From Candidatus Omnitrophota bacterium (GTDB lineage: Bacteria > Omnitrophota > Gorgyraeia > Aquiviventales > JACQRC01): a stretch of DNA of 63,948 bases. This document shows, piece by piece, positions 34,060-35,266 of this stretch. Location of the stretch: contig JACQRC010000105.1 of the NCBI GenBank assembly GCA_016206665.1, positions 1 to 63,948 of the forward strand, given 5' to 3'. The notes under the pieces are model-generated. The model was not told the origin of the DNA. It saw only the letters and a list, made by a program, of their open reading frames with translations, and searched no databases. The first letter of the stretch is position 1. Every line of letters begins with the position of its first letter. The position numbers and the translations under genes are program-made.

Positions 34060-35238
34060 CTACTTGCAGCAGGTGGTTCGCCAGTCGCCAAAGCCCGGAT
34101 TCGTCGTCGAACAGGACGTAGATTCTCCACCGCCTTGTTCACCCTGCACACACCACTCGCCATTGGCACTGCAGGTTTGCGCATGGGTCAAGCCACCGGG
34201 CGTTGGCCTGACTGTGCAGGTGAACGGGCCGCCGCGAATCTGATTGGCATGCAAACCGTCCACCATATCGGCATTCAAGCCGCTGCCGGCGCCCTGCGGA
34301 CTGAGGGTGGCCGGCAGCTGAGTACCGGTGTGGTTGTCGCGGTTGAGCAAATCTGCCGCATGCATCCCATCGACGGTGTCCGCATCCAGCCCGCTCTCGC
34401 TGCCTTGTGGGCTGATGAGTGTCGGCGTCACGGCCGATGAGAGCCCATCGGCAACCTCGGCCCGCATGGCCATGGGCACACTCATAATCCGCTGCCGCGG
34501 GGTCATCTCGCCGTCCTGGTTGAGCTCGATGGAGACCCAGTAGTCGCGATCGAACGGCAGGTTGAGGGGGGTGACTGTGCCGAGGCTCAAGGCAAAGCGG
34601 CCGCTGGCCATGGCCACGTTTGGCGTCACCTCTTCCCAGAGTTTTGCTCCACCCGTCGCCGCATCGTAGAGCCGACAGGTCACCGTGTAGGGGCCTTCGA
34701 GGGCGACCCCCGCGCCGTCCGTCGCCGTGCCTTGATATCTGATGACGTGGGGAACTTGAGCGTACGCGCAGTGACTAGTGTCTAGTGAAGGCTGACCAGT
34801 GAACAGGGACCAAAAGACAACGAGGGCCGCCAGCACCCTGACCGCTTCAGCGTTGCGCTTGGCGGTGTTTGACGTGCGCAGCGAATGGGTTAAGCCGGTT
34901 AACATGTGTACCACCTCCTCATAGCTCCCTCGGAGCTGCTCATGGAGCGGTGCTTTGAGTAGTTCACGACGAAAGGCAAAGAGCAGTAGATATAAGGTTT
35001 CACTCACGGAACGCCGGGCAACGTTAATGAACTGTAACAGCTCCTTCGTGTGCGAAGTGGCGCATCCCTCGGCCAAGTTGGTGGGCACGGAAAGAGCGGC
35101 GCGCCGTAATTGGCTGGTTAAATCAAAGAGATAGCTGCGCGGAAAGGTTTCTGTCAAATCAAACACCCGATGCGCCAGTGCATCAGCCTTTTGCCACACC
35201 TGTAACTCATGAAAGCTTTTGATCATCGTCCGTGCCAC
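34060..35238 (-). CDS. single ORF fusing a four-helix-bundle (23S rRNA intervening-sequence protein / Avd-like) module to a hydrophobic segment and a Cys-rich extracytoplasmic domain; alternative starts at ATG 35226 and internal ATG 34905
   Basis: N-terminal FHELQVWQKADALAHRVFDLTETFP..LTSQLRRAALSVPTNLAEG..FINVARRSVSE; then AVRVLAALVVFWSLF; then two DADTVDGMHA / NADMVDGLHA repeats and a C-terminal Cys cluster. Confidence 0.65.
   Translation of the reverse strand: MARTMIKSFHELQVWQKADALAHRVFDLTETFPRSYLFDLTSQLRRAALSVPTNLAEGCATSHTKELLQFINVARRSVSETLYLLLFAFRRELLKAPLHEQLRGSYEEVVHMLTGLTHSLRTSNTAKRNAEAVRVLAALVVFWSLFTGQPSLDTSHCAYAQVPHVIRYQGTATDGAGVALEGPYTVTCRLYDAATGGAKLWEEVTPNVAMASGRFALSLGTVTPLNLPFDRDYWVSIELNQDGEMTPRQRIMSVPMAMRAEVADGLSSAVTPTLISPQGSESGLDADTVDGMHAADLLNRDNHTGTQLPATLSPQGAGSGLNADMVDGLHANQIRGGPFTCTVRPTPGGLTHAQTCSANGEWCVQGEQGGGESTSCSTTNPGFGDWRTTCCK
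34769..34804. repeat. heptamer array AGTGACT-type, inner arm flanking the four-helix-bundle module
   Basis: AGTGACT AGTGTCT AGTGAAG GCTGACC AGTGAAC, in-frame, encoding SLFTGQPSLDTSH. Confidence 0.85.
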
Positions 35239-35243
35239 TTTTC

Positions 35244-35266
35244 TTCACTCGTCACTAGTCACTCTC
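35244..35266. repeat. heptamer array, outer arm, inverted relative to 34769-34804
   Basis: Reverse complement reads GAGTGAC TAGTGAC GAGTGAA; fills the 29-bp gap between the stop at 35268 and the start at 35238. Confidence 0.85.

Follow-up and report, generated by a model that had tools for sequence, protein, structure and literature searches.

The closest described counterparts of the element discussed here are intervening sequences (IVSs) of 23S rRNA and paired repeat arrays. The 23S IVS of Coxiella burnetii carries the S23p open reading frame (ORF) in a hairpin with a 28-bp stem that is cut by RNase III; three or four tandem heptamers (GACAGAT) lie on its 5' side just before the start codon, and S23p is regarded by the authors as decaying (PMC4990558). 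In Geobacter metallireducens, sites of four 8-mers, five 7-mers or three 9-mers are paired on opposite strands with variable spacing, and arrays of four 7-mers also occur within genes; Aklujkar et al. 2009 read the paired sites as IHF/HU 'global regulator binding sites' and reported no cargo genes between them (PMC2700814). The element described here is a hairpin of tandem heptamer arrays around a four-helix-bundle (4HB) gene, located in a 63,948-nt contig of a Candidatus Omnitrophota bacterium (JACQRC010000105.1; the whole stretch is referred to as the window), where the 4HB is joined in frame to a secreted fibre-like protein of an RHS toxin operon.

The 4HB 'IVS protein' family is large, and to our knowledge no function is known for it outside diversity-generating retroelements (DGRs). 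So far it has been taken for a curiosity of rRNA or for a CRISPR-associated gene, with the 23S rRNA IVS protein listed as CRISPR-associated in two surveys (PMC10910872, PMC3936711); given cassettes that sit between operon genes and carry repeat arrays, this association may be incidental. A literature search found no paper that generally links 4HB or GxxExxY genes to flanking tandem-array hairpins and no report of a 4HB-to-signal-peptide fusion, curators' database comments being outside its scope. The window element is considered to be a resident IVS-type hairpin cassette outside rRNA that has become integrated with the start of a secreted-protein gene, a reading to which we assign a probability of roughly 0.55. 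Its anatomy, its conservation, the co-variation of its arms, the purifying selection on the 4HB and the absence of the module from other homologues are established directly.

The fused reading frame and its four-helix-bundle domain

The fused ORF runs from 35238 to 34060 on the minus strand and encodes 392 aa; it opens with a GTG at 35238, the likelier start being the ATG at 35226 (MIKSFHELQVW...). A preliminary description made from the letters alone had claimed that this ORF begins with a complete 4HB, that no stop follows it, that the frame runs on through a hydrophobic segment into an extracytoplasmic domain, and that arms built of one 7-mer stand in inverted orientation at 34769-34804 and 35244-35266; all of these claims hold. 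The N-terminus is a complete 4HB of the PF05635/TIGR02436 family (34873..35226, minus strand, without its own stop codon): ORF residues 11-115 match PF05635 with 101.7 bits (cutoff 33.8) over profile positions 2-106 of 106, and residues 14-120 match TIGR02436 with 96.6 bits (cutoff 24). The family motif RxxxSxxxNxxE (PMC3936711) is present as R46-S50-N54-E57 within QLRRAALSVPTNLAEG. By sequence similarity only, the domain resembles PDB 2GSC (XCC0516; E 8.5e-15), the sole solved structure among its relatives and a homopentamer (PMC4990558). Pairwise comparison of the 4HB relatives gives a nonsynonymous divergence (dN) of 0.15-0.4 with synonymous divergence (dS) saturated in all but a few pairs; therefore the 4HB is under purifying selection and the loci diverged anciently.

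An AlphaFold2 (AF2) model of the fusion, built on the fibre alignment, has a mean pLDDT of 69. Helices are predicted in the 4HB part at residues 2-27, 34-49, 62-95 and 100-122, with low pLDDT because the input alignment contained no 4HB rows, and a further helix is predicted at 125-159. A Foldseek comparison of the model with the PDB matched nothing at E <= 1e-3; what the model adds is only an immunoglobulin (Ig)-like beta-sandwich and a confident Cys-rich C-terminal domain.

The secreted protein and its signal peptide

Beyond the 4HB, the frame continues through a basic AKRNAEAVR segment and a 12-residue hydrophobic stretch (VLAALVVFWSLF) into TGQPSLDTSH, followed by CAYA and, past the predicted cut, QVPHVIRYQG. 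Judged by motif and by alignment with homologues, the features of a Sec signal peptide are all present: a basic n-region (KRNAEAVR), the h-region VLAALVVFWSLF, and an AYA-QVP junction where 21 homologues have AxA followed by (Q/A)VP. The linker and the n and h regions (SNTAKRNAEAVR VLAALVVFWSL) are encoded at 34805..34872 (minus strand), inside the hairpin loop. The predicted signal-peptidase site, A-Y-A at 34767-34759 before Q161 at 34758-34756 (minus strand), aligns with that of 21/21 homologues; the mature fibre-like protein (34060..34758, minus strand) consists of an N-terminal beta-sandwich, two LDADxVDG repeats and a Cys-rich C-terminal domain, and its similarity to Bdello_MAT_N is weak.

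With residues 112-392 as the query, about 200 homologues are found, and PF05635 occurs only in the window's own protein. The best-matching homologues are 260-310 aa long, and each of the 21 that were aligned has its own signal peptide of ~25-41 residues, ending in AxA and followed by (Q/A)VPHLIRYQG. A syntenic locus (L002-L004) has a helix-turn-helix (HTH)-cupin regulator, a kinase and a response regulator on one side, and then the Ig-like, fibre, Glucodextran_B-like and RHS genes; the ATG of its fibre gene shares bases with the stop of the gene before it, and neither a 4HB gene nor arrays are present. The 4HB module is thus an addition to the operon, since both the ~200 fibre homologues and this syntenic operon are without it. 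In the fibre of locus L001 (51% identical, without a 4HB gene), a similar array stands alone at the corresponding signal-peptide site (PLVTSHSSLAYA).

Inverted heptamer arms

The cassette lies between gene 1 and the fibre gene of the RHS toxin operon, and its arms consist of about three to five 7-mers. The outer (5') arm (35243..35263, minus strand) reads AGTGACT AGTGACG AGTGAAG on the coding strand; it is non-coding, starts 4 nt past the stop codon of the upstream gene and ends 16 nt before ATG 35226. The inner (3') arm (34769..34804, minus strand) is made up of NNGTCAC-type 7-mers and encodes the c-region of the signal peptide, FTGQPSLDTSH; its best-pairing core is at 34770-34790. The two cores are 21 nt each, lie 452 nt apart and are complementary at 19/21 positions (90%). 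Tandem Repeats Finder (TRF) reports both arms as 7-nt arrays. Taken more loosely, the arrays extend over 34769-34804 and 35244-35266; the five units of the window array all differ from one another. The ungapped inverted-repeat score of the arm pair is 16, compared to a maximum of 14 among controls (386 pairs of equally spaced segments from other loci). The motif GTGACNNGTGAC, allowing up to one mismatch, occurs 17 times in the window as compared to 4.65 expected, a count reached in 0/100 shuffles.

When the 521-nt segment is folded as RNA, the arm stem closes the cassette in both the minimum free energy (MFE) and the centroid structures; the interior is as structured as shuffled sequence (z = 0.01), and the hairpin folded without its cargo reaches -26.4 kcal/mol (z = -3.4). 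No Rfam family matched the window, so it holds no LSU rRNA and the cassette does not lie within a 23S helix; its flanks are protein-coding genes. There is no transposase between the arms, and no target-site duplication is evident beside them (AGAG vs GCGC), no systematic test for one having been made. The arms bracket the 4HB, as the preliminary description had it; the hairpin is not limited to that module, because the inner arm lies downstream of the n and h regions and the loop therefore encloses the start of the host gene together with the 4HB.

Diverged loci with the same arrangement

A scan with the 4HB part against one-genome-per-species contigs and metagenome contigs yielded 156 loci. 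The nearest relatives (66-76% identical) share the layout of the window; related loci are labelled as Omnitrophica or Planctomycetales metagenome-assembled genomes, and L169 and P0121 come from Hainich and other groundwater samples. The order arm, 4HB, n/h region, arm serving as c-region, AxA and secreted protein is found in at least nine diverged loci, as in-frame fusions in seven (the window, L081, L082, L083, L084, L087 and L169, protein P0125) and with a stop/start overlap in two. The downstream partner is a short fibre in L087 and L169, a Glucodextran_B-like protein in L081 and L084, and a long fibre in L082 and L083, which have another genomic context after lspA-lgt-rluD. The two loci with separate ORFs (L005 and L168) have the upstream stop, the outer arm within a few bases, a Shine-Dalgarno (SD) sequence, the 4HB and a 4HB stop that overlaps the fibre ATG (TGATG or ATGA, -1 frame), after which come the n/h regions and then the inner arm as the c-region (e.g. 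SLRHFATSPLCHA followed by QVPP); the overlap suggests translational coupling. In three standalone loci (L085, L086, L088) the 4HB ORF traverses the 3' arm and terminates at its end (...THHSSLATGH and stop). In the L169 fusion, two conserved fibre Tyr codons (EGPYTLTFRLY; 1509-1511 and 1530-1532) read TAA in a low-coverage contig (cov 3), which is either a sequencing error near the contig end or a mark of a pseudogene.

The arms are complementary in all related loci, with duplex energies of -29 to -57 kcal/mol and stems of up to 33 bp; no fusion without repeats was found among them. The loci vary in their repeat unit (GTGACNA in the window, GTGGCAAA in L005, GTGGTCA in L082, AGTGANA in L083, GTGGTTA in L084, and also GGTGRCYC), and the arms match each other throughout. 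To keep a non-coding arm complementary to a coding arm at such divergence would require selection or concerted evolution. The in-frame join is inherited and not an accident of the contig, because it recurs in L081, L082, L083, L084, L087 and L169. This bears on the notion of an assembly or sequencing artefact, or of a chance ORF: the window is a metagenome contig, in which a single indel could join both frames; an identical join in six other loci from different samples and the statistics of the arms, which oppose chance, leave this explanation a negligible probability.

The same loci bear on whether the long frame is used at all. As the preliminary description pointed out, an in-frame ATG is present at 34905 (M112; 34905-34903, minus strand); it is preceded by GGAGG (34918-34914) at a spacing of 8 nt and falls inside the conserved 4HB motif YEEV.RML. 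The fibre might be made from M112 with a long signal peptide, the long ORF being incidental, its 4HB part a read-through of a lost stop and the fusion without a role. A signal peptide from M112 would span 49 aa, or ~37 if the insert encoded by the array is left out, a length also found among the homologues; moreover, L083 has an in-frame ATG right after its 4HB, and L005 and L168 encode two separate proteins. However, the SD-like GGAGG may be a coincidence, because YEEV.RML is conserved in standalone, non-fused relatives as well, and the corresponding codons of L081 are not SD-like. With no stop after the 4HB, ribosomes that initiate on it would yield the fusion product regardless, and seven independent fused loci indicate that the join is at least tolerated. 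Overall, sole use of the internal start is a possible but doubtful account of the locus.

A second question is raised by P0121, the closest 4HB relative, in which the frame changes immediately after the array and the remainder of the fibre is called as a separate gene: its peptide runs ...FTGHWSLVT and then ALLRTRQSLTSS..., which corresponds to AYAQVPHL... in another frame. The 7-mer arrays could be slipped-strand phase-variation switches; with units of seven, a number not divisible by three, adding or losing one of them within the signal-peptide region would turn the fibre on or off. The array does lie within the leader-peptide region of a surface or secreted protein, and the relatives include both fused and -1-frame arrangements. 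Slippage is disfavoured by the imperfection of the arrays, of which the five non-identical units in the window are an example, and the same arms occur at the dprA-topA, leuC-leuD and pilB-pilC housekeeping sites discussed below, where switching would be senseless; polymorphism in array length was not directly observed. Phase variation is thus regarded as quite unlikely.

Hairpins around four-helix-bundle genes across genomes

A census of 76 genome loci, grouped by flank homology into 37 contexts, places the window cassette in a wider setting. The score of a locus is that of the best inverted repeat which the 160 nt on one side of the 4HB ORF form with the 160 nt on the other, and controls were taken at shifted positions. 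The median score is 18.5 compared to a control median of 8; 57 of the 71 testable loci, and 26 of the 33 testable contexts (79%), exceed the 95th percentile of the controls. The best period is 7 in 48/48 strong arms. The stop codon falls within the 3' arm in about half of the strong arms, and in most others the arm begins no more than ~30 nt after the stop. Nucleotide flanks that are 75-94% identical had suggested that the census loci might be true 23S rRNA IVSs; this was rejected, as Rfam detected rRNA in none of the 76.

Flanks inspected in representative loci include dprA/topA, pilB/pilC and leuC/leuD, and several junctions are fixed: dprA-topA is shared by 23 Acidobacteriaceae loci, pilB-pilC by 6 Pirellulaceae and leuC-leuD by 3 Dyadobacter loci (the L016, L008 and L072 groups). 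A 4HB gene between cmr3 and cmr2 was reported earlier (PMC3936711), a placement that fits cassettes seated between neighbouring genes. In the dprA-topA series, of which 19 loci were analysed, the unit varies between AGCTNTT, AGCYRTC and AGCYRTG, and each change affects both arms alike. L042 has a related cassette whose repeat unit is the same, in a different genomic context.

The preliminary description had offered two histories, either the arrival of a hairpin-borne gene at an operon gene's 5' end or a genuine fusion of a cytoplasmic 4HB, a transmembrane segment and an exodomain. The first stands insofar as 7-mer hairpins around 4HB genes are the norm across phyla and match the Coxiella 23S IVS in architecture, and the module is an addition to its operon; a recent landing is contradicted, because synonymous sites between the related loci are saturated. 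The second holds in part, as the in-frame join repeats in six other loci.

The GxxExxY cassette, cargo-less hairpins and solo arrays

A second cassette in the window carries an unrelated cargo, a GxxExxY gene (PF13366, PD-(D/E)XK; 41275-41700, E 2.7e-34), between inverted 8-mer arrays of CACGAAAN at 41259-41293 and 41720-41752, in agreement with the preliminary description; the called start (ATG 41275) lies inside the left arm. Homologues of this gene elsewhere are placed in the same way: 6/6 (L161-L167) are bracketed by inverted arrays of ~7-10-mers, the neighbouring genes being mostly co-oriented, and one of the six is in the complete genome of Thioalkalivibrio paradoxus. No GxxExxY relatives were found by tblastn against the fetched 4HB loci or in a scan of viral contigs. 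Two hairpins without cargo, at 36856-36929 (-51 kcal/mol) and 49833-49910 (-45 kcal/mol), have four CACGAAAN units per arm and show homology to the GxxExxY cassette in both arms and flanks, the flanking ACTTAAAGCACA included; they are either derivatives of that cassette resembling miniature inverted-repeat transposable elements (MITEs) or empty target sites.

Solo arrays of 7- or 8-mers are found in the RHS gene (26985-27018, 27722-27754 and 27855-27886), in kinase genes (38767-38796 and 40939-40975) and at 55217-55260, 57354-57391, 59759-59791 and 18183-18224; several run in frame within coding regions. Aligned with the L002 orthologue, the arrays of the RHS gene appear as swaps of near-equal length (VTGHLSLVT / LSPAVTYVS; LVTSHSSLG / LVTDGP--G), from which solo arrays seem to overwrite existing sequence rather than insert into it. 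The cargo-free arrays and hairpins indicate that the arrays have an independent life.

The empty hairpins at 36856-36929 and 49833-49910, with their homology to the GxxExxY arms and the flanking ACTTAAAGCACA, also speak for an account in which the arms act in DNA, as terminal inverted repeats (TIRs) of a mobile cassette with MITE-like empty derivatives, as recombination sites formed by a cruciform or single-stranded hairpin, or as the ends of an invertible segment. The spread of 76 loci over 37 contexts, the L042 cassette with its unchanged unit in another context, the variable presence of the module in a syntenic operon and arm mismatches free of a G-U bias all agree with this. Nevertheless, the cassettes contain no transposase or recombinase, no obvious target-site duplication was seen, and a cassette has been inherited stably at one site in 23 species; furthermore, a simple TIR-bounded insertion cannot account for a hairpin that encloses the n/h coding sequence of the host, and inversion of the segment would destroy both genes. 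An action in DNA is therefore considered unlikely.

Proposed mechanism

Under the reading of the element as an IVS-type cassette merged with its host gene, we infer RNA cleavage, translational gating, the topology of the protein and any mechanism of mobility. In the window lineage, the cassette would have merged with the translation start of the host gene, its 3' arm becoming the c-region before AxA. Since the 4HB and fibre frames are joined, ribosomes starting on the 4HB would read across the arm into the secreted protein. The product is predicted to be a 4HB-signal-anchor-fibre precursor, exported N-in/C-out and cut after AYA160; cleavage after A160 would free the fibre and leave a membrane-tethered 4HB. 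The normal preprotein from M112 may arise additionally or instead. In the operon transcript the arms could pair as a long-range stem (21 bp in the window), which by analogy with the IVSs may be an RNase III substrate. A cut in this stem would part the fibre start and the n/h regions from the mature fibre coding region, whereas ribosomes crossing the inner arm would open the stem, which would make expression of the fibre dependent on translation of the 4HB ORF. As the role of the arms we prefer RNase III processing or translation gating.

Several observations weigh against this interpretation. The arm duplex of the window (-28.8 kcal/mol) is the weakest among the compared loci, and solo arrays and empty hairpins exist without cargo. 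Arm mismatches show no G-U bias (G-U 68 vs A-C 54, p = 0.24), and therefore pairing in sense RNA is not favoured over pairing in DNA. Cassettes are oriented in the sense of their neighbours in 13 contexts against 5 (p = 0.10), which is weak; an apparently strong bias of 39 vs 6 counted per locus was dropped, as it is not significant per independent context. A 4HB sub-clade (L089-L123, L006, L007; 55-60% identical, downstream of galE in the inspected loci) has no inverted partner within 3 kb downstream; its upstream direct arrays (GAAGTGNGG or GTGGCAAGA) comprise at least 10 units with small GC hairpins interspersed. In the array units, 5 nt form a conserved core and 2 positions vary, a pattern that resembles iterated protein-binding sites more than a plain stem. 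Finally, a folded domain of ~120 aa before a 12-residue h-region may be exported poorly.

The form of the units leads to the suggestion that the arrays are iterated protein-binding sites, possibly for a pentameric 4HB on its own leader, with the complementarity of the arms secondary. The conserved core with its two variable positions, the ~4-5 units per arm beside the homopentameric state of XCC0516 (PMC4990558), and the sub-clade that retains long upstream arrays only would all fit. However, GxxExxY cassettes have the same layout with unrelated proteins and 8-10-mers, arm length stays roughly constant at ~30 nt across unit sizes, arrays occur free of cargo, and arm complementarity is kept through changes of the unit; binding sites are therefore judged very unlikely to be the primary function.

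A broader proposal is tentative and rather doubtful: small genes in tandem-array hairpins may make up a widespread kind of cassette that has hardly been described. The arms, ~30 nt long, would consist of 7-mers where the cargo is a 4HB gene and of 8-10-mers where it is a GxxExxY PD-(D/E)XK gene; hairpins lacking cargo and solo arrays in frame would derive from such cassettes. They would reside in operons and occasionally in rRNA, where they were first seen as IVSs, and RNA-level processing of the hairpin would keep them harmless or make them useful; in this groundwater lineage, one may have been domesticated as a translated, translation-coupled leader from which secreted fibre and Ig-like proteins of RHS operons obtain their start and part of their signal peptide. 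This would recast the 4HB family as cargo of a general hairpin element whose usual home is a heptamer-array hairpin between operon genes, a view that also rests on the co-evolving arms and on the unrelated small nuclease family GxxExxY on the same chassis. The oddity of the present locus is that a hairpin arm is translated as a signal-peptide c-region and that a cytoplasmic domain has repeatedly been joined to an exported protein across lineages. The locus is hence a handle on the function of the arms, be it RNase III gating, phase variation or protein binding, and bears on the origin of the short 7-8-mer arrays that litter some genomes, coding regions included.

The RHS operon and other repeats

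The operon's first gene (35268..36008, minus strand; stop TAG 35270-35268) encodes an Ig-like protein of 246 aa whose C-terminus has orthologues in L005, L081 and L084; the sole sigma-70-like promoter match near the locus (36046-36018) is upstream of this gene. The remainder of the operon past the fibre (25190..34043, minus strand) comprises a Glucodextran_B/Ig-like protein (32754-34043) and a 2544-aa RHS protein (25190-32824) that is of the SpvB/TcdB_mid/RHS type by synteny with L002. Two short RHS-core-end proteins (YYNARYYDPQLGRF...; 41742-43142 and 43552-45039) have N-terminal signal-like segments and Gly/Ala-rich tails, and each is followed by a small ORF; together these have the appearance of orphan RHS toxin tips and their immunity genes. 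The GxxExxY cassette's right arm directly precedes the first of them. A Y1 transposase gene of IS200-like type (PF01797; 24060-24848, minus strand) has the inverted repeat GGGACGGTTCTAATTTTCG at its flanks (24041-24069 and 24766-24915), similar in appearance to repetitive extragenic palindromic (REP) sequences and their associated tyrosine transposases (RAYTs); in L002 a Y1_Tnp gene is situated between the fibre and the Ig-like gene.

Comparison with known systems

The DGR accessory protein Avd and the window 4HB share a four-helix-bundle fold family. Avd models match the window domain weakly and below their cutoffs (PF22296, 18 bits against 40; NF033474, 24 bits against 80), and no reverse transcriptase is present among the scanned neighbouring ORFs (Ig-like, RHS, HTH-cupin, response regulator and kinases), the search not extending to template and variable repeats.

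In Neisseria opa genes, CTCTT repeats in the leader drive phase variation. Haemophilus hmw 7-mer repeats are reported to act together with RNase III (PMC12721329). Both resemble the window in having short tandem repeats within or ahead of a surface protein's signal-peptide region, with a unit length not divisible by three; the window arrays differ in being imperfect and paired with an inverted copy 450 nt upstream, and such arms are also found in housekeeping operons. REP/REPIN elements with their RAYT (Y1) transposases, and MITEs, likewise consist of short dispersed hairpins with or without an internal gene, and Y1_Tnp genes occur in both the window and L002. However, the window Y1_Tnp is flanked by a different repeat (GGGACGGTTC), the cassette arms are tandem arrays rather than REP palindromes, and the cassette has no transposase.

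The paired sites of G. metallireducens are alike in anatomy to the window arms, the empty hairpins and the in-frame arrays. The ORF-containing 23S IVSs of Coxiella burnetii, Leptospira and Xanthomonas share with the window the PF05635 family and the placement of the gene in the loop of a terminal-inverted-repeat stem. In contrast to those IVSs, the window cassette lies not in rRNA but in a protein-coding operon, its 3' arm is translated, its 4HB is under purifying selection whereas Coxiella S23p is considered decaying, its loop also holds the start of the next gene, and its ORF is fused to a secreted protein.

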